From the sequence record OR896157.1: DNA of 64,000 nucleotides; one strand, 5' to 3'. Of this stretch, positions 5,387 through 46,585 are shown in pieces. The position numbers and the translations under genes were made by a program. The DNA is from a phage. Under the pieces are notes generated by a model. It did not search any database. It worked only from the letters and a program-made list of their open reading frames with translations, and had not been told where the DNA came from. The stretch's first letter is position 1, and each line of letters begins with the position of its first letter.

Positions 5387-6342
5387 TTGAATTGCATCTC
5401 TACAACAAGTTGCATGAACATATAAGTTATGTGCAGTTCTGTCGAAGCTGCTACACCATGATATTGATTGTTCTCACCGACAATCTCATACATCCTGATG
5501 ATACTTGCTTTATCAACTTTCGTGTAAAGCTCGTTAGCAAGTTTCTCGATAAACCAAGAATAATTAGTCGCATACTTAGGAGCTAATGCACGAAGTTGTT
5601 TAACATCTTTTGATTTCAGTGCATCAATAACATCACTGATATCACCAGAAGTTTTCGTCACCAAATCCAAAATTCCAGAGTCAATAACGCCTTTGGAAGA
5701 ATAATGGTCCAAATCACCAATCGTCTTACGAAAATCTGGGAAGTTCTTGTTAACCAAAGCCGCGATGACTTTAAGGTCTTCAATTTTGATATTCTCGTTT
5801 TTACAGATTTCTACGCAACGGCGAATCATTTCTTTCATCATGCTGCGTTTATCGTCATCAGTCGCTTGACCGAATTTGATAACACGACAACGAGATTGAA
5901 GTGGTTCAATGATACCGTCAATGTTGTTAGCAGTGATGATGATTGTACAGTTGCTTGAATAAGCTTCCATGAAAGAACGTAAGTGACGTTGAGATTCAGC
6001 AAGACCTGAACGGTCAAATTCGTCAATCACAATAACTTTCTGCTTACCGGATAATGAGGCAGCTGTTGCAAAGTTTGTCAGTGGCCCACGTACGAAATCA
6101 ATCTTACAATCTGAACCGTTAACGAACATCATTTCAACACCGACGTCGTTACAAAGTGCTTTTGCTAAAGTAGTTTTGCCTGTACCCGGAGATGCAGATA
6201 CCAGAATCATATGAGGGATGGTGCCTTTCTTGATGATAGCATCGAATACTTGGCGGTCAAATTCCGGAAGAATACATTCCGAAATTGATTGTGGACGATA
6301 TTTCTGTTCGAAGATGTGTTCTTTTTCGTTAATGCTTAACAT
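5383..6342 (-). CDS. 44: clamp loader large subunit (gp44, AAA+ ATPase)
   Basis: 319-aa ORF, Walker A SPGTGKTT, Walker B VIVIDEFD; position between 62 and 45. Confidence 0.93.
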
Positions 6343-38176: not shown

Positions 38177-38473
38177 TTAACTAAACGGGTCGTGAAGCTT
38201 ATTACCAATACGACGGAACACTTTAGCTGCAAATTTATTGGAAGGGTTATCAACCATAATTTTGCGCATGTGACCGGTCGCGACTGTTCGAGCAGCCTTA
38301 TAACCAGCAATGTTATCTTTCAAAGTAATTCGACCTTTTCCTTTAGGGTCGTCAATGGTCACTTTGTAAGTTCCCATATCTTCGCCAGGCTTAATTTCTT
38401 CAATCCAGATATAACCACCTGGAACTCGCTTTTGTTCAGCTGCTTCATTTAAAAATTCATTATAGGTTTTCAT
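38177..38473 (-). CDS. internal head protein (capsid-targeting sequence [11 protein letters not shown])
   Basis: 98-aa ORF from internal ATG; N-terminus matches T4 IP capsid-targeting consensus MKTYxEFIxE; adjacent to e as ipII/ipIII in T4. Confidence 0.6.
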
Positions 38474-38954
38474 ATGCTTTCCATGTTCCAACTCGGAATG
38501 TTTCAATTACTCGTTTAGCACGATTTGGTGTCTGACGATACCACTTGGAATTAGCAAGCTCTTTTGCAGCCGCTTCCCATTGTTTTGATTTAAGCAGACG
38601 CATTGATGCTGGGAAACCAGCTACACCTGTTACGCCCATCTGAAACACCATATTAATAAGTGCAGCACGACGAACTCCATCAAGTACATCATATACTGGT
38701 TTTAATACAGCATTTCCGAGAATCCCTCGAGTTGCTTTATCGACGTCTTTCGCAAAAATAGCTTCTGCTTCAGCTTTTGTGATTTGACCATTACATGGAC
38801 GCCCCACAAGCTTATCAAGTTCTCGTTTAGCAGCATCAAGAGAAGGGTCACGTGTCAAAAGGTGACCGATACCGATTGTCCAAAAACCTTCAGTATCTTT
38901 ATAGATTTTAGAATCGTATCCTTCATCGATACGAAGCATGCCAAAAATGTCCAT
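38460..38954 (-). CDS. e: lysozyme (T4 e, endolysin)
   Basis: 164-aa ORF, near-identical core to remembered T4 lysozyme ([32 protein letters not shown]). Confidence 0.96.
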
Positions 38955-38987: not shown

Positions 38988-39467
38988 TTAGCATTCCCAA
39001 AGAGCGTCTTGAATGACCTTTGGATAAAGTTTCTGCATAACAGAGAAAAGACTTGGGCCCATTACTACATTCCACATACGCGGCTGAATCAAAGCAAACG
39101 CATCGATTTCCGGAAATTCGTTTCCATCTTCGTCCGTATGATATGCCGTGCAAATACAATCTCTGAATTGAGAGTGTTCCACTGGGAACGGATATTCAAA
39201 GATATGTATATCTTTATTGCTAGCATAATCATGTCGGCCTAGGTCCACTAGATGTCCTGGATTATAATCAACGAATCCACTTTCTTCTCTGCATTCACGA
39301 ACTGCAGCTTCAAGAGGAGATTCACCTGGCTCGATATGACCCTTTGGAATGTCCCAGCGAGATGGTCCACCACCTAGTCCAGAATTAGTTACTCGACCCA
39401 TGAACAGTTCTTTGTCTTTTGTAAAGAACAGAATACCAGCAGAGACTTCTTTAATTTTCTTACTCAA
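38988..39467 (-). CDS. nudE: Nudix hydrolase NudE
   Basis: 159-aa ORF; Nudix box GHIEPGESPLEAAVRECREESG; adjacent to e. Confidence 0.85.
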   Translation of the reverse strand: MSKKIKEVSAGILFFTKDKELFMGRVTNSGLGGGPSRWDIPKGHIEPGESPLEAAVRECREESGFVDYNPGHLVDLGRHDYASNKDIHIFEYPFPVEHSQFRDCICTAYHTDEDGNEFPEIDAFALIQPRMWNVVMGPSLFSVMQKLYPKVIQDALWEC

Positions 39468-39694
39468 ATTTCACCCCAACTAATTTCACGAAGTCTTTGC
39501 ATGATTGACTCAACTTCTTCAATCATATCTTCATCGCAGTCAAATGAACCTTCTACCATCCAATCACTAATTGGAGTGAACATTTCAAGGTCCGTAGATA
39601 GACGATTACGAATATCATCTACTGATTCATTGTCGTTGAAGGAGTACAGGTAAGAATCAGCCGATTCAGATTTAACAAATACCGCAATACTCAT
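39464..39694 (-). CDS. hypothetical acidic protein
   Basis: 76-aa ORF. Confidence 0.45.
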   Translation of the reverse strand: MSIAVFVKSESADSYLYSFNDNESVDDIRNRLSTDLEMFTPISDWMVEGSFDCDEDMIEEVESIMQRLREISWGEI

Positions 39695-40002
39695 ACCTTT
39701 TCCTCTAAGAAGTCAGACAGTTTAAAATCTTTACGGTCCATCAGACCATAGTGAATGTTCTTCAGCGTATCGTACATGTCCCAGTACTTTTCTTTTAGCA
39801 TATTACCAAATGGTGGAATATAAAGCTTATCCCATTTAGCAGCTAACTCACCATTGCGCAGTTCTCCTGGAACATTTTCAACGATACGTAAAACTTTAGT
39901 TGCAACCTCATAATCGGATGGCGGAATCCATCCCCAATTATGATGTACTGAACCGTTAATTTCGCCATTCAGCGAAGTAAAAATCGTAGCTGGACAACTC
40001 AT
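39691..40002 (-). CDS. hypothetical protein
   Basis: 103-aa ORF. Confidence 0.5.
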   Translation of the reverse strand: MSCPATIFTSLNGEINGSVHHNWGWIPPSDYEVATKVLRIVENVPGELRNGELAAKWDKLYIPPFGNMLKEKYWDMYDTLKNIHYGLMDRKDFKLSDFLEEKV

Positions 40003-40361
40003 CGTGTACCTCTAATACCTTGAATAAAGTTTAAAGCATCTTCACCTGGTGGAACTTCTTTAGACTTAGATTTTCGTTTAAAGAGTTTCCACTCTTTCTT
40101 TTGGTCGAAGGTTCCACGTTGAACCTGCCCAAGATAAAATAACCACTTTCCAATCCAGTAGAATGGAGTTAAAATGCCAGCCATCCAGCCAACAAAAAGT
40201 AATTGTTCACCATACAAAGGACTAAAGAAGTACAATCCCCAATATGTTCCAAACCCATAAAGCATTGTGAACATAAAGCAAATAATTATTGTACAAACAG
40301 CCCATCCAAAATTATCATATGAACCAGCATCTTTGAATCCGCGAAATAATGTTTTAATCAT
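39999..40361 (-). CDS. small 2-TM membrane protein, paralog 1 (C-terminal NFIQGIRG)
   Basis: 120-aa ORF; two hydrophobic helices; C-terminal motif shared with next four genes. Confidence 0.5.
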   Translation of the reverse strand: MIKTLFRGFKDAGSYDNFGWAVCTIIICFMFTMLYGFGTYWGLYFFSPLYGEQLLFVGWMAGILTPFYWIGKWLFYLGQVQRGTFDQKKEWKLFKRKSKSKEVPPGEDALNFIQGIRGTR

Positions 40362-40717
40362 CGTTTAATCCTGCATCTGGAGATAAAGTTCTCTAAATTT
40401 TGTTTGTCGTCGTAAATGGCCTTGGCTTTAGTAAACAATTTAACATGAATTTTACAATAACACCACTTAATAAAAGAAGCAACAACAATGACAACGAATA
40501 GTGAACATAATGCGCTTAGTGGTACAGAGATAATCATTTCAGCTACAAATCCATTGAACCACCAAACTACGAAATTTGATATGAAGACAGTAAGTATAAT
40601 AATTGCCCAACAAACGTCGTCTTCGTATTTCGACTTGAATCTATCTTCAATTTCTCGTTCAAAATGTCTGATATTCATTTTAGGATTGTATTTCATTTTT
40701 ACCTCGACATTCCGCAA
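40358..40717 (-). CDS. small 2-TM membrane protein, paralog 2 (C-terminal NFISRCR)
   Basis: 119-aa ORF; two TM helices; FIxxCR tail. Confidence 0.5.
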   Translation of the reverse strand: MRNVEVKMKYNPKMNIRHFEREIEDRFKSKYEDDVCWAIIILTVFISNFVVWWFNGFVAEMIISVPLSALCSLFVVIVVASFIKWCYCKIHVKLFTKAKAIYDDKQNLENFISRCRIKR

Positions 40718-41036
40718 TGAATTCTTCTGATTCTCGGATTATTCTATTACGAAGAACTTTAGCATTCTGTTCAGCTAAACGTTTATTTTCTGGTCGCATT
40801 ACCCACCAGATTGCAATATCATGAGTTTTAGGATGAGCCCAAATCATAAATGGAAGCGAAAGAAAAGTTGTAGTTGCAAACCAAATTGGAGCATATGGGT
40901 CTTCTAACAACAGTGACGGAATAAAAACGAAAAGTGACACAAATGTGCATAAAATTAAAACTGCCATTAAGTGCCAAAAGTCTACTTTAGCTTCAAATTC
41001 TCTTAATTTTAATTCAATCTTTGGCTGATATCCCAC
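40680..41036 (-). CDS. small 2-TM membrane protein, paralog 3 (C-terminal EFIAECRGK)
   Basis: 118-aa ORF; two TM helices; FIxxCR tail. Confidence 0.5.
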   Translation of the reverse strand: MGYQPKIELKLREFEAKVDFWHLMAVLILCTFVSLFVFIPSLLLEDPYAPIWFATTTFLSLPFMIWAHPKTHDIAIWWVMRPENKRLAEQNAKVLRNRIIRESEEFIAECRGKNEIQS

Positions 41037-41038
41037 GG

Positions 41039-41413
41039 TTATTTCCTCGCTTTCCGGCAGTTGTCAATGAAACCTTCAAATCGTTCAGCTTTACCAAGCT
41101 TTGACACTATACTGTTTCTTCGTAAGCCAATTAAAGTTTGGGCAATCACATTGACAAACTCACCTATCAACATAATGATTATTGGTAACATTCCCCAACC
41201 AAAGCATATGAATACAGCAATCGCTCCAGCAGAATTAGCTCTTTCTTCTTTTGGAAGCTCTGTAATACCATACCAACCCCAACACGCAATAATTGCATAC
41301 AGTGACAATCCTATGACCCAACAAAACTTTTCATTCCTGGTCAAAATGTATCTGACCTTGGTTGAGAATGAATCTGTTTTAGCAATTTTAGCTTTAAGTT
41401 CATTTGAATTCAT
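41039..41413 (-). CDS. small 2-TM membrane protein, paralog 4 (C-terminal GFIDNCRK)
   Basis: 124-aa ORF; two TM helices; FIxxCR tail. Confidence 0.5.
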   Translation of the reverse strand: MNSNELKAKIAKTDSFSTKVRYILTRNEKFCWVIGLSLYAIIACWGWYGITELPKEERANSAGAIAVFICFGWGMLPIIIMLIGEFVNVIAQTLIGLRRNSIVSKLGKAERFEGFIDNCRKARK

Positions 41414-41425
41414 TTTATTTTCCTC

Positions 41426-41445
41426 ATAGGGCCCGAAGGCCCTTT
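41426..41445 (-). terminator. GC hairpin GGGCC-UUCG-GGCCC; copy 4 of 4
   Basis: identical palindrome directly upstream of the SD of ORF 41039-41413. Confidence 0.5.
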
Positions 41446-41446
41446 A

Positions 41447-42364
41447 TCATTTGAACGGACGAATCATATCAAAGTTTTCTTTAAAGCGTTTGACATAATC
41501 AGTCTTTCCAAGTTTCTTATGCATTGCAACTATCTTGTGGTAGTTTTCCCATGCATATTCGCGGAACCAACCAGATGTAATAGAAGTACAAACTTTTTCC
41601 AAAGCGTACATAAATGAACCAGTAGGGTCCGGGTTAAAGTTATTTGGAATTTGATGACGTTCCAAAGCAAGTACGCAAGTTTCTTCATATACACCCGCAA
41701 GTTTAATTTCTTCAGGCAGAGAATCAAATTTCTCTTTTGAAGTCATTACTTCAGAACCGTCTTTCATATAGAAAGTGTAAGCAGGACGGCCTGCTAAGGC
41801 TACTGCTTCATGAATTGAGTCATGGTCGTAGATGTAAAAATCATCTTTGAAGAAAGAATCTTTATCTACATCCAGATTAGGATGAGAATATGCTAATGTC
41901 TCTTTCTGACGCAGTTCGGAAATCTTTTTAAGACTTTCGTCCAAAACAATTCCTTTATTACGCAAGAAACGAATATGATGCATAGTCTTTTGGAAGAAAC
42001 GAGTGTTCTTCTTGAAGCGATGAGACAGTTTAATTGCTAAACACATCTCAGGAGTTGCCCAGTACATCTGAGACAGCGCATCGTAGCAGTCACGGAACAG
42101 CGCATAATTTGCAAGCATTTCAGATGAAGTGTTTTCATCATATTCAAAAATGTATGCTTCAAAATAAGTCTCACGACCGTTGTGCATGCATTTGAAAGCT
42201 TGTACATTAGGAGATTGAACTTCAACCTCTGTGCCGTTCATACGGTTTTTGAAATGAAGCCATTCGCCTGGAGACGCAATGAAGTCCCAATCAGAGTTCT
42301 TAACATCACTATAATCAATGAGACCATGGTGATGTAGTGCTCGAGAACCAATAACCAGCAACAT
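41447..42364 (-). CDS. hypothetical protein (305 aa)
   Basis: long ORF preceded by early promoter at 42393-42422. Confidence 0.55.
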   Translation of the reverse strand: MLLVIGSRALHHHGLIDYSDVKNSDWDFIASPGEWLHFKNRMNGTEVEVQSPNVQAFKCMHNGRETYFEAYIFEYDENTSSEMLANYALFRDCYDALSQMYWATPEMCLAIKLSHRFKKNTRFFQKTMHHIRFLRNKGIVLDESLKKISELRQKETLAYSHPNLDVDKDSFFKDDFYIYDHDSIHEAVALAGRPAYTFYMKDGSEVMTSKEKFDSLPEEIKLAGVYEETCVLALERHQIPNNFNPDPTGSFMYALEKVCTSITSGWFREYAWENYHKIVAMHKKLGKTDYVKRFKENFDMIRPFK

Positions 42365-42392
42365 AATATTTTCCTCTTTAGACTGTAGAACT

Positions 42393-42422
42393 ACTATAAC
42401 ACACTTGACTTCTGTTGTAAAC
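42393..42422 (-). promoter_or_regulatory. T4-type early promoter (GTTTAC-N18-TATAGT)
   Basis: minus-strand motifs. Confidence 0.55.
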
Positions 42423-42801
42423 GGTTCTTTCTCTGGTTCTTTCTACAAATTCTTATGAAATTTTCAATAGGTTCTTCTGGGGTCTTAATTGGATAACATT
42501 CTTTCCAATTCCAACCACCTAGCAAGTCAAAGATTTGGTCAGGAAGAGAATCCCATGGATGTTCTCTTTCACTGAGTTGAATTATGATGTCGCCAGCAGC
42601 TTCTCTGATTCCGGTATTAAGTTTTCCGTTACAAATCACAACATTCATGAGTGCAGAAAGACAACAACTATCATGGCTTCCATATTTGTTCGGATAGTAA
42701 AAATAATGGTCAATGATATAGCAGTAATTAGGATTTAAGCCTTTCATAGTGTTCCTCCAGTGATTCTGGGGAAACTTTTCAGTCTCCCCATATATTACCA
42801 T
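42394..42801 (-). CDS. hypothetical soluble protein with the same C-terminal motif (ENFIRICRK)
   Basis: 135-aa ORF, no TM helix, shares FIxxCR tail with the four membrane paralogs; 3' end overlaps the promoter (see 42393-42422). Confidence 0.45.
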   Translation of the reverse strand: MVIYGETEKFPQNHWRNTMKGLNPNYCYIIDHYFYYPNKYGSHDSCCLSALMNVVICNGKLNTGIREAAGDIIIQLSEREHPWDSLPDQIFDLLGGWNWKECYPIKTPEEPIENFIRICRKNQRKNRLQQKSSVL

Positions 42802-43034
42802 TAACAGCTGCTAGTATACCACACAGAGCCGTCCTCGTTAACCCCAAAGGTCTCAGAGTTACCTTCGCCATAGCAATCAGAAGACTGCCAATCGTTAAAG
42901 GTCAGATATCCGCCAGAAACTTCCATGCCAAAAGAAGCTTCATTCGCCATAGTTTCAAGTTTACCAAGAAGTTTAGCTACTTCAACTGCAACTTCTTCGA
43001 TTTCTTTACGTTTTTCTTCACGAGTTTTAGTCAT
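42801..43034 (-). CDS. hypothetical protein
   Basis: 77-aa ORF. Confidence 0.45.
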   Translation of the reverse strand: MTKTREEKRKEIEEVAVEVAKLLGKLETMANEASFGMEVSGGYLTFNDWQSSDCYGEGNSETFGVNEDGSVWYTSSC

Positions 43035-43042
43035 AATTTACC

Positions 43043-43354
43043 TTAGCACATATCAGAGGAAGAAAGCCAAACGCCTTCTACAAGTTTTTCATTTTCATCA
43101 ACTTCTACACCATGATGACCTACAAGCCAATGAGCGTCATAGCCTACTGGATAATAAGTACGGCCGTTTCCATAATCACCTACATCAAAAGTCAAACAAT
43201 GCTCATCAGCGATAACTTCAGCAGCTTGTTCAATTTCTTCTGACTGCTCCAGAAGTTTTGCAATAGCTGCTGCAGCAGATTTACGGTCGTTATATTCAGG
43301 AATTTCAATCTGAATTACTTTGTTCATTTCTTGTTCTCTTTGCAATCTGCCCAC
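43043..43354 (-). CDS. hypothetical acidic protein
   Basis: 103-aa ORF. Confidence 0.45.
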   Translation of the reverse strand: MGRLQREQEMNKVIQIEIPEYNDRKSAAAAIAKLLEQSEEIEQAAEVIADEHCLTFDVGDYGNGRTYYPVGYDAHWLVGHHGVEVDENEKLVEGVWLSSSDMC

Positions 43355-43970
43355 GGCAGTAGTTAATGAAATCGGAAACGTCCGCTCCGATATGGCTTCC
43401 AGGAACCTGTAGTTTTTCTACAAGATTATTCATTTCAGCTGAAAAATGCTTAACAAGATATTCTCGTGATGGGCCACGGAATGATTGAGCTTCTTCAAGA
43501 TTATTATCAGCAATAAATGAGAAAATAAACTTTCCACCACGAGTATTATAGTGAACTTCAATAGCTCCACAGAACCAATGACCCATTGAATAACGGTGTC
43601 CTTCGCCTTCTTTTCTAACTTCAGAAGTCAAATTATTCAATGAAATTGATGAATAATGATATGAATGCGCACCCTTATAAGCAATACTGCATCCGTCAGC
43701 AATTAAAGCAGAAAGCATACGACGAGCATCTTTCAAGCTGTTGATGTAAACGTGGCCTGGAACTTTTCGTTCTTTAAGCTGATGATCGTCCATACGCAAA
43801 GAACAATCATCGTATGCCGGAGCCAAAGGTTCAATGATATTGATTAAACGTTTTGGCATACCAGAATATTCTAATTGGCTACGAACATATTTCCCAAACT
43901 TATTTCCAGTACCCTTTGTGATAACTTTAGACTCTTTCTTAGGTTCATTAAAATCATCATAAAAAGCCAT
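43305..43970 (-). CDS. hypothetical protein
   Basis: 221-aa ORF. Confidence 0.5.
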   Translation of the reverse strand: MAFYDDFNEPKKESKVITKGTGNKFGKYVRSQLEYSGMPKRLINIIEPLAPAYDDCSLRMDDHQLKERKVPGHVYINSLKDARRMLSALIADGCSIAYKGAHSYHYSSISLNNLTSEVRKEGEGHRYSMGHWFCGAIEVHYNTRGGKFIFSFIADNNLEEAQSFRGPSREYLVKHFSAEMNNLVEKLQVPGSHIGADVSDFINYCRGQIAKRTRNEQSNSD

Positions 43971-44022: not shown

Positions 44023-44625
44023 TTAGCCTTTCAGACTTTCCAGATATTCCTGGAGATCAGCGGTGGTGGTTTCAATACCAGCAGGAGTGGTGTTGAAGGT
44101 ATCAATACGAGACAGAGTAGTCTGTACATCAACTTTCATCAGAGATGCAGATTCGATGATATCTGCTACATTGTCCAGACCCATGGAGTTAGCAGCACGA
44201 GTTTCACGGATGTACTCGAGTTTCACTTTAAGGTCTTCGCGCTGATCGTCCAGAGCTACAACAGTATTTTCAATTTCAGTGAGCATCTGTGTCAGTTCAG
44301 TTGCTTTGTTACGCAGAGCTTCTGCGGTACGACGATACAGAAGACCGAGTTTAGCATGGGTCTGTACGTCAGCGTTAGGATTTTCAGCCAGAATTCGGCG
44401 AATTTCTTTTTCTTTACTTTCAGCTTGTGCATCTTTTTCTGCAGCAGCTTTAAGTTTATCGTTAATTTCACGTGTTGCCGTCACATGACGAGTTTTCAGT
44501 TTATGAACTTCAGAGATAATATGCTCAGCAGCATGTGTCATCTGGTCTTCTACCGAAGTGTTCTTGGTCATGAAGGTGCCCAGTTTAATGCGGATGAATT
44601 CAACAATTTTCTTCAGAATAGCCAT
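44023..44625 (-). CDS. coiled-coil protein, possibly PspA/IM30-like
   Basis: 200-aa ORF, all-helical charged heptad sequence with amphipathic N-terminus; weak by-eye resemblance to E. coli PspA. Confidence 0.4.
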   Translation of the reverse strand: MAILKKIVEFIRIKLGTFMTKNTSVEDQMTHAAEHIISEVHKLKTRHVTATREINDKLKAAAEKDAQAESKEKEIRRILAENPNADVQTHAKLGLLYRRTAEALRNKATELTQMLTEIENTVVALDDQREDLKVKLEYIRETRAANSMGLDNVADIIESASLMKVDVQTTLSRIDTFNTTPAGIETTTADLQEYLESLKG

Positions 44626-45487: not shown

Positions 45488-45516
45488 ATAATAACACATC
45501 TAGAACCAATGTAAAC
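45488..45516 (-). promoter_or_regulatory. T4-type early promoter (GTTTAC-N17-TATTAT)
   Basis: minus-strand motifs. Confidence 0.55.
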
Positions 45517-45656: not shown

Positions 45657-46310
45657 TTACTTAGTTTCTACCTTTTTGAGTGCTTTGGCACGAACGTCCA
45701 CACGGTGCGCCGACTCTATATATTTGCGAACTTCTTTAGCTATGCCAGTAGTGTAAGCTACAGTTTCGACTGTCGTATACAAGTCCATCAGCTCAGGAGT
45801 GTCGATGTTGCTGATGTTACGACCTCTGCGGATTTTAGCAAACTGAGTTTTAAGTGCAGCACCATCTTTAGAAATTTCGTTGAGAAGAGCGAGAATCTTC
45901 TCATACTTGTTTACGATGCCTTTAACGTCAAACTTGTAAAGGTCTGCGCTAACTTTAGGAGCCGGCGTCGCTTTAGGTGTCTGAACTGGAGCTGCAGGTT
46001 TAACTGCTGGTGCCGCTTTAGGAGCAGGAGCTTTCACTGCAGCAGCTTTAGGTTCTTTTGGTGCTTTTGCCGGAGATTTAATGCCTCTCAGAGTTTTAAA
46101 AGCATTTTGTACTTTGTAATAATCTTGTGGATTAGAAGTTCCAATACCATAAAGTTTTTGGACTGATGCAGCAAATTTCATGAAGTCGTTACGTTCGCCA
46201 GGAGGAACTAAATCCATAGCACTCTGCCACTTCATTTTAGTCATGCGTTCGCCAGCTTCAGTAATCATGTTGAAGCTAGATTCTGTAATAAATTCTTTAA
46301 AGTTAAGCAT
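45657..46310 (-). CDS. internal head protein-like (capsid-targeting sequence MLNFKEFITE) with Ala/Pro/Lys-rich linker
   Basis: track ORF trimmed to internal ATG 46310; N-terminus resembles T4 IP targeting peptide; low-complexity KAPKEPKAAAVKAPAPKAAPAVKPAAP segment. Confidence 0.5.
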   Translation of the reverse strand: MLNFKEFITESSFNMITEAGERMTKMKWQSAMDLVPPGERNDFMKFAASVQKLYGIGTSNPQDYYKVQNAFKTLRGIKSPAKAPKEPKAAAVKAPAPKAAPAVKPAAPVQTPKATPAPKVSADLYKFDVKGIVNKYEKILALLNEISKDGAALKTQFAKIRRGRNISNIDTPELMDLYTTVETVAYTTGIAKEVRKYIESAHRVDVRAKALKKVETK

Positions 46311-46329
46311 AATAGGGTTCCGTGTTAGT

Positions 46330-46585
46330 TTATTGTTGTATTTATATGCAACAACACCCCGTCCGAAGACAGGGCGTAAGAATCGACAGCACCACCTACT
46401 GGCAGATGGCCTGCAGAAGTTCATTCCCAGCGACTCGGAGGCATCAGTCTCGCCCCTGGGAATATAGCGTCGTGGAGGTGTCACTTTGCAGGTGATTAAC
46501 AACCGGTGGCTCCGTAGAACCGTTGCGGCAAGGGCTAACCTTCTCTTCTAACACGACGTCTTCATACGAGAGCTGCAACTCTCTG
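46330..46585 (-). ncRNA. GC-rich structured non-coding island (candidate ncRNA)
   Basis: ~250 nt far more GC-rich than flanks; minus-strand CCCUGUC-UUCG-GACGGGG hairpin at 46353-46370; reading frames through it give R/P/C/G-rich junk. Confidence 0.3.

Follow-up and report, generated by a model that had tools for sequence, protein, structure and literature searches.

A conserved C-terminal peptide on small membrane and soluble proteins between nudE and e.6 in a T4-type phage

Between the genes for a T4-type lysozyme and NudE on one side and a homologue of T4 e.6 on the other, the phage sequence record OR896157.1 carries a tightly packed block of small genes, all on the minus strand, several of which end in nearly the same short peptide. 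We analysed a stretch of 64,000 nucleotides of this record, called the window here, and asked why proteins of such different make-up should share a C-terminus and what this tail might do. An initial annotation, made from the letters of the window, had seen here a locally amplified and diverging family in a host-interaction module. The reading that we favour, with a probability of about 0.4, is that the tail would be a docking or address peptide, a C-terminal amphipathic helix exposed to the cytoplasm on varied early proteins, which would gather them at one shared site. Matches to the region 39600-43400 occur in 53 phage records, the closest being Enterobacter phage vB_EclM_AS6 (93.8% identity; Straboviridae, Tevenvirinae, Karamvirus), where all genes under the match are annotated as hypothetical, and the window can thereby be placed among the Karamvirus, as a T4-like Enterobacter phage.

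Six neighbouring genes bear the tail: gI, gH, gG and gF encode small membrane proteins with two helices, and gD and gA encode soluble proteins (Table 1); the six copies of the motif lie in a span of 3.4 kb, each 3-15 residues before its stop. The five tails quoted in the initial annotation are all present as written in the minus-strand translations, and a sixth, in gA, had been missed. Their consensus is [LIFV]-[END]-x-F-[IV]-x-x-C-R-[KRG]. Under a definition that requires [FW]-[IV]-x-x-C-R among the last 30 residues and, counting the Phe as position 0, a hydrophobic -3, gH, gG, gF, gD and gA matched exactly, and gI differed in having Ile for Cys. A hidden Markov model (HMM) of the tail recognizes gI with E = 5.8e-10 and gF with E = 3.9e-11, and the Ile variant of gI is kept in its Karamvirus orthologues.

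Exact copies of FI..CR are found in five real genes, all within 40370-43370 and 3-15 residues before the stop; the six-frame translation of the 64 kb holds one further copy, inside an open reading frame (ORF) of 17 amino acids (aa). From the amino-acid composition of the window, 0.0045 genes would be expected to have FI..CR in their last 25 residues, against five observed (Poisson P = 1.6e-14), and in 2000 residue shuffles the count never exceeded one. A chance origin of the motif is excluded. The codons at the conserved positions vary (Phe TTT/TTC; Ile ATT/ATC/ATA; Cys TGC/TGT; Arg AGA/AGG/CGA/CGG/CGT), and since every conserved residue is written with several codons, the constraint acts on the peptide and not on the DNA or RNA. 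The shared tail pointed out initially is thus significant, and it is so at the protein level.

A profile of 111 non-redundant tails shows how narrow this constraint is. Position -3 is hydrophobic in about 97 of the 111 (L 44, I 23, F 18, V 12) and -2 is E, N or D; position 0 is F in 107 and W in 4, +1 is I in 84, V in 23 and L in 4, +4 is C in 104, and +5 is R in 98 and K in 10. Glu is the commonest residue at +3 (38/111), and +6 is mainly K, G or R. A peak of the hydrophobic moment lies at 100-120 degrees, higher than in 1000 of 1000 shuffles, and Pro and Gly are rare in the segment. The tail thus reads as an amphipathic helix, one face of which carries -3, 0, +1 and +4. Its distance from the C-terminus ranges from 0 to about 15 residues.

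Table 1. Tail-bearing genes, their motifs and their neighbours in the window.
Feature	Coordinates	Strand	Product or context	Tail peptide	C-terminal segment up to the stop	PHROG or domain
lysozyme e (T4-type)	38460-38954		flank of the block, nudE side			
nudE	38988-39467		flank of the block, lysozyme side			
gJ	39691-40002	minus	ends KLSDFLEEKV			
gI	39999-40361	minus	120 aa, two membrane helices	NFIQGIRGTR (Ile instead of Cys)	EDALNFIQGIRGTR	phrog_9350, unknown function
motif FIQGIR in gI	40011-40028	minus				
gH	40358-40699	minus	two membrane helices; probably 113 aa, from ATG at 40699	NFISRCRIKR	NLENFISRCRIKR	phrog_16360
motif FISRCR in gH	40370-40387	minus				
gG	40680-41036	minus	118 aa, two membrane helices, GTG start	EFIAECRGKNEIQS	SEEFIAECRGKNEIQS	phrog_27909
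motif FIAECR in gG	40704-40721	minus				
gF	41039-41413	minus	124 aa, two membrane helices	GFIDNCRKARK	RFEGFIDNCRKARK	phrog_23997
motif FIDNCR in gF	41054-41071	minus				
G+C-rich hairpin	41428-41443		3' of gE			
gE	41447-42364	minus	305 aa, no tail			DUF7277 (E = 3e-28), DUF7275 (E = 2e-77)
gD	42394-42747	minus	small, soluble; probably 117 aa, from ATG at 42747 after GGAGG (135 aa read from 42801)	ENFIRICRKNQRK	PIENFIRICRKNQRKNRLQQKSSVL	phrog_29231
motif FIRICR in gD	42442-42459	minus				
gC	42801-43034	minus	77 aa, paralogue of gB			phrog_899, C-terminal part
gB	43043-43327	minus	94 aa, paralogue of gC			phrog_899, C-terminal part
gA	43305-43970	minus	221 aa, soluble T4 e.5 homologue, directly downstream of e.6	DFINYCRGQIAK	VSDFINYCRGQIAKRTRNEQSNSD	phrog_22749 (E = 5e-14)
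motif FINYCR in gA	43353-43370	minus				
e.6 homologue	44023-44625	minus	200 aa, upstream neighbour on the opposite flank; synteny in 40/40 loci			

Each of gI, gH, gG and gF has a K/R-rich N-terminus, two hydrophobic stretches with a short loop between them and a strongly basic C-terminal tail. By the positive-inside rule this would give an N-in/C-in topology and hence a cytoplasmic tail, in agreement with the initial annotation. The soluble protein that it had listed at 135 aa is indeed soluble and tail-bearing; its shorter form is the one annotated in phage AS6 and seen in P0059. Soluble proteins like gD, of about 100 aa and with the pattern W..W..hydrophobic-x-x-FIxxCR, are present in many genera. 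The second soluble carrier, gA, starts 52 nt past the e.6 stop codon, and BLAST joins the e.5 groups of Karamvirus, T4 and RB69-like phages at E = 2e-4 to 6e-4. The columns that this e.5 family has in common are Y-S...N, G..F and the tail. No other segment of these proteins is as conserved as the tail, whose motif lies, in an AlphaFold2 (AF2) model of gA, within a C-terminal helix spanning residues 199-217. C-terminal fragments of e.5 (P0003, P0006, P0007) carry the precomputed Pfam assignment PF26876.1, which is absent from our local Pfam copy, and this recent entry may already cover the e.5 C-terminus.

Are these genes one family? BLAST sorts the tail carriers into more than 13 groups, and the window proteins together with T4 e.2-e.5 fall into ten separate PHROGs, all of unknown function except for the label 'membrane protein' of phrog_2203, the T4 e.2 type. 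None of the six tail proteins matched Pfam (local copy), NCBIfam or PADLOC, and PHROGs returned families of unknown function only; among these resources, annotated PHROGs included, no known family of anti-phage defence or superinfection exclusion matched either. Of the roles suggested initially, superinfection exclusion, membrane targeting and anti-defence, each may still apply, and none finds specific support in these results. The protein gH matches phrog_2203 at E = 3.4e-5 and resembles the C-terminal half of the e.2 type, with hhalign giving a probability of 91% over 81 columns against the e.2 group and, once the tails are removed, 72% over 55 columns. In gG the N-terminus MGYQPKIELKLREFEAK resembles MKYNPKMNIRHFEREIE of gH, a weak hhalign link of 55-58%. 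For gF, gI, gD and gA without their tails no profile-profile kinship was found, in alignments that are shallow and for short membrane proteins that diverge fast. Detectable homology therefore appears limited to gH, gG and the T4 e.2 type, and the e.2 type itself differs in a soluble N-terminal domain of about 75-110 aa ahead of its helices, where gH, gG, gF and gI have only 20-30 residues. The diverging paralogue family of the initial annotation thus finds support only in part; gF, gI, gD and gA share with these relatives just the tail, or the tail and the two-helix architecture. What appears constant is the tail, on bodies that are unrelated or highly divergent.

The tail extends to T4 itself, where e.3 ends in EFVIDCRKIK, e.5 in KFVKECREYVK... 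(KFVKECREYVKAITIPSK up to the stop) and e.4 in a shifted variant, KFVKESRCKSQS, with the Cys displaced by two residues. In T4-like genomes e.2 is a protein of 162 aa that has two membrane helices and NFITECRKLK at its end, whereas the T4 reference gene (102 aa annotated; NC_000866 67472-67960, corresponding to 5473-5961 of locus L002) is shortened relative to those genomes by two indels: a -1 indel falls in an A-run and, about 80 nt further on, a +1 indel compensates for it. Either the T4 sequence holds an old error, or the gene is a pseudogene. Its orphan tail NLNNFITECRKLK stays in frame up to the stop and overlaps the annotated nudE start (MQEIK-MKTLS). The initial annotation had not recognized a described T4 family; the tail is present in these four T4 genes, and neither such a family nor a description of the shared tail was found in the databases and the literature searched, the latter also by gene name. 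Run on every ORF of the window and of the complete T4 genome, the tail HMM finds just these proteins, with the next match at E = 0.05.

To follow the tail across related phages, 40 IMG/VR loci with e.6 were retrieved; a lysozyme-anchored search for loci lacking e.6 brought back mainly the same genomes. Of the 839 ORFs that lie on the same strand in the 7.5 kb downstream of e.6, 108 end in [FW][IV]xxCR, against 4 of 3143 other ORFs; these counts come from related loci and are not independent. In all 40 loci the ORF right downstream of e.6 is a soluble tail carrier, mostly e.5-like; it is frameshift-broken in phage PG7 (L003) and in L008, has just 93 aa in L029, and carries the motif variant F[IV]xYCI in the Aeromonas-type loci L043 and L044. 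In PG7 (L003/L047, 4925-5653) the gA-like e.5 gene is split into three overlapping ORFs, by frameshift or sequencing error. At least one membrane-helix tail protein is also present in 35 of the 40 loci. Copy number varies among related phages from 1 to 6, most genomes having 2-6 and three loci (L041, L045, L046) a single copy.

In a wider search, the tail profile gave 11 matches among 1.84 billion representative proteins. Eight were T4-like orthologues; the other three merely look similar, namely a junk repeat, the repeats of an HA domain and a secreted repeat protein in which KRKDFIAECRG occurs four times. A tail-only profile against a word-indexed set of 5.8 billion proteins yielded nothing beyond fragments of the same phage proteins. 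At the sensitivity used, the tail appears confined to T4-type phages. Kinship with the helicase-associated (HA) domain PF03457 was considered and rejected: the tail profile matches the HA repeats PLSKFVANCRRKY in P0061 by motif only, with hhalign at 14% or less for every tail group, and the Pfam HA model matches no protein of the window.

Sequence divergence is faster in the tail-bearing genes than in the genes beside them. Against four Karamvirus relatives, amino-acid identity is 72-81% for gF and 76-93% for gG, compared with 95-100% for e.6, gE and lysozyme. The ratio of nonsynonymous to synonymous substitution rates (dN/dS) of the tail genes is 0.05-0.35, which gives no evidence of the diversifying selection that had been proposed for them; selection is relaxed yet purifying. 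As for expression, the minus strand has sigma-70-like promoters at 45515, 45189 and 42421, and no T4 late promoter (TATAAATA) was found between 39 and 46 kb. The last of the three (42393-42421, minus strand) consists of TTTACA, a 17-nt spacer and TATAGT with an upstream TG; it lies just 3' of the gD stop and directly upstream of gE, its -35 end reaching over the last gD codons. In T4, the genes e.2-e.6 have RNAs of the early class, and mass spectrometry detected each of their five proteins, with e.4 and e.5 as early, e.2 and e.6 as middle and e.3 as late proteins (PMC9697503 supplement).

A terminal helix that is constant and specifically conserved while the bodies vary is the hallmark of a docking or address peptide. 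By this docking explanation the same tail would have been joined to different bodies, namely two-helix inner-membrane proteins (gI, gH, gG and gF; e.2, e.3 and e.4 in T4), gD and gA, and its carriers, made early in infection, would be drawn through it to a single common binding site, with the membrane members acting as anchors or sensors and the soluble members as cargo or adaptors that are recruited. The first candidate for the partner is e.6, since a soluble tail protein, mostly e.5-like, follows it in all 40 loci. The gene is found in 1103 phage records, and its AF2 model (41 homologues, mean predicted local distance difference test score, pLDDT, of 67) has an N-terminal helix, a hairpin with arms of about 60 residues and three short helices. 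In a Foldseek search of this model against the PDB, the top eight matches were Vipp1 (E = 5e-3 to 3e-2, template modelling score about 0.5), followed by CHMP1B/IST1, PspA and Snf7. At the level of sequence, e.6 has no match in Pfam, its profile meets Vipp1 among PDB sequences at a non-significant E = 0.5-4, although colinearly (9-144 vs 8-145), and hhalign against PspA and Vipp1 gives a non-significant 7%. The model thus suggests a long helical-hairpin protein of the shape typical of membrane-coating proteins, and the likeness to Vipp1 and PspA comes from one structure search, with neither sequence nor profile behind it. If e.6, with an amphipathic N-terminal helix and a long hairpin of the membrane-coating or remodelling kind, were the site at which the tails dock, the membrane tail proteins would parallel the small anchors of PspA-family proteins (PspB/C, LiaI); what ties it to the tail is association.

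Several observations weigh against the docking explanation or against e.6 as its partner. Phage CC31 has gD, gF, gG, gH and gI intact and lacks e.6, e.5, gB and gC, and it is not among the records with an e.6 match of at least 95% identity; L068 encodes two membrane tail proteins with no e.6 within 10 kb; and Aeromonas 44RR-like and RB49-like loci have e.6 and one tail protein only. Neither e.6 nor a second tail protein is therefore strictly required, the link between e.6 and the tail is weak, and a universal host or core-phage partner, or association of the tails with one another, is about as plausible as a partnership with e.6. A simple docking helix also does not account for the invariant Cys, and this residue is itself replaced by Ile in gI and lies two residues off in T4 e.4. 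In CC31 (L050, 5300-9000) the genes from e.8 to e.5 are gone together with gB and gC, and a tRNA-like sequence abuts gD.

Among the alternatives to docking on a separate partner, the one that fares best, though we consider it doubtful, is that the tails bind each other, forming a homo- or hetero-oligomerization helix that would unite membrane and soluble members at the inner membrane, with the Cys in its core or binding a metal. The same peptide on all members would then need no additional partner, the hydrophobic positions -3, 0, +1 and +4 do fall on a single helix face, several copies are the rule in most genomes, and the tails of CC31 are explained without e.6. Against this, a conserved core of about nine residues is short for a stable helix-helix contact, some phages have a single copy, and a strictly conserved Arg beside the Cys is unusual in the core of a coiled coil.

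It is rather unlikely, in our estimate, that the tail is instead a generic amphipathic helix for the membrane surface, like those of MinD or FtsA, or a turnover signal for FtsH, ClpXP or Lon. An amphipathic helix followed by K/R residues, which in the two-helix proteins would lie in the cytoplasm near the membrane by their predicted topology, would suit either role, and early proteins might need to be removed on time. Such signals, however, accept conservative changes, while F, C and R are near-invariant here across genera; signals read at a free C-terminus do not move over some 15 residues as this motif does; and proteins with two membrane helices need no extra anchor.

A more improbable alternative connects the tail to the T4 capsid-targeting sequence, of which it would be a C-terminal relative that binds the prohead scaffold and either delivers soluble members into the head or tethers the assembling core to the membrane, the Glu at +3 letting the gp21 protease cut after I-x-E. 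Internal-protein-like genes do flank the locus, gG reads EEFIAE-CR, Glu leads at +3 in the profile, and a matrix built from tail positions -3 to +3, thus without C and R, ranks MKTFKEFIKE of T4 61.1 first and MLNFKEFITES of the ORF at 45657-46424 fifth among 68,061 positions. The canonical internal-protein signal itself, however, lies outside the top 28 matrix scores. Moreover, the known signal is N-terminal, after the start Met, while all tails are C-terminal; it has no counterpart to the invariant C-R; two thirds of the tails lack the Glu for gp21 cleavage ([LI]-x-E), and in the window just gG has it; integral membrane proteins are not packageable; the stretch from 39 to 46 kb has no late promoter; and the T4 RNAs are of the early class. 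The internal-(head-)protein-like ORFs at 38177-38473 and 45657-46424 (minus strand) have N-termini of the capsid-targeting type, in the second case at an internal Met of a longer ORF, and their position on the flanks of the e.2-e.8 block matches that of ipI, ipII and ipIII in T4.

The weakest idea, to which we give hardly any credence, is that the motif is a by-product of nucleotide signals at gene junctions (Shine-Dalgarno sequence, translational coupling) or a leftover of common ancestry: several tails do overlap or adjoin the ribosome-binding site of the next gene (TGT CGA GGT AAA AAT G in gG), and gH, gG and the e.2 type are true relatives, but the use of five Arg, two Cys, two Phe and three Ile codons rules out a nucleotide-level origin, the distance from motif to next start varies, and a motif kept across genera while the protein bodies diverge past recognition is the opposite of neutral decay.

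Other genes lie among the tail carriers. gC and gB, between gA and gD, match phrog_899 (221 aa) over no more than its C-terminal 90 residues, and each has W..SS..C directly before the stop. gE is interleaved among the tail genes and has 95-96% identity to its relatives. Next to gI, gJ has an end that looks like the first half of the tail without C-R, as does that of T4 e.7 (L002 7969-8304; INAFIDELDEE), and these may be decayed relatives or chance resemblances.

The docking explanation can be extended to a membrane-maintenance module of T4-type phages, in which an ESCRT-III/PspA-like (or BAR-like) coat made of e.6 would be served by an expandable set of fast-evolving anchors and adaptors that dock by the tail. 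We regard this extension as unlikely. If it were true, the module would be used early to keep the inner membrane energized, it could block premature firing of the holin in lysis inhibition or repair damage by membrane-attacking abortive-infection effectors, and its variable anchors would mirror host-specific threats. In a more general sense, a nine-residue peptide would tie T4 e.2-e.5 and at least ten PHROG families across the Straboviridae together as a single functional group. Even in T4, the best-studied phage, about half of the genes are without known function; as a tractable system, T4 offers a direct experimental handle on the tail peptide. If the tail docks on e.6 or on a host membrane-stress protein, the phage would prove to encode a system for acting on the inner membrane, and should it dock on the prohead scaffold, the concept of capsid targeting would be widened to C-terminal signals.

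How does the tail compare with known systems? T4 Imm and Sp are likewise small early proteins of the inner membrane or periplasm, but they show no family match to the tail proteins, and the tail HMM misses imm and sp in the T4 genome. PspB and PspC for PspA, and LiaI for LiaH, are small inner-membrane proteins that recruit a helical-hairpin coat encoded next to them through cytoplasmic helices. The modelled likeness of e.6 to Vipp1 and PspA would fit a similar arrangement here; the tail proteins, however, have no sequence similarity to these anchors, e.6 has no significant sequence or profile match to the PspA family, CC31 does without e.6, and literature searches for phage PspA homologues found nothing relevant. 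Encapsulins have cargo-loading peptides and bacterial microcompartments have encapsulation peptides; in both, otherwise unrelated proteins bear a conserved helix of about 10-18 residues at one terminus, which sends them to one assembly. The tail may follow the same logic by analogy, with no sequence relation to these peptides and no compartment known here. The capsid-targeting sequence of the T4 internal proteins IPI, IPII and IPIII, reportedly the subject of work by Mullaney and Black in 1996, lies at the N-terminus, lacks C-R and is cut by gp21. It too is a short amphipathic address peptide on unrelated proteins of the same variable region, and its pattern (aromatic/hydrophobic-polar-acidic-F-I-x-E) resembles the tail from -3 to +3, whereas the tails are C-terminal, mostly without the cleavage Glu, and sit on membrane proteins. 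The closest counterparts are T4 e.2, e.3 and e.4, annotated as predicted membrane proteins, and e.5. The window differs from T4 in having four membrane-helix copies, in the insertion of gD, gB, gC and gE between e.5 and the membrane genes, and in gF, gI and gD, which have no detectable T4 orthologue. In both phages the genes occupy the same locus from nudE to e.6, in the same order and on the early strand, and they encode the same architectures, two membrane helices or a soluble domain, each followed by the same C-terminal peptide.

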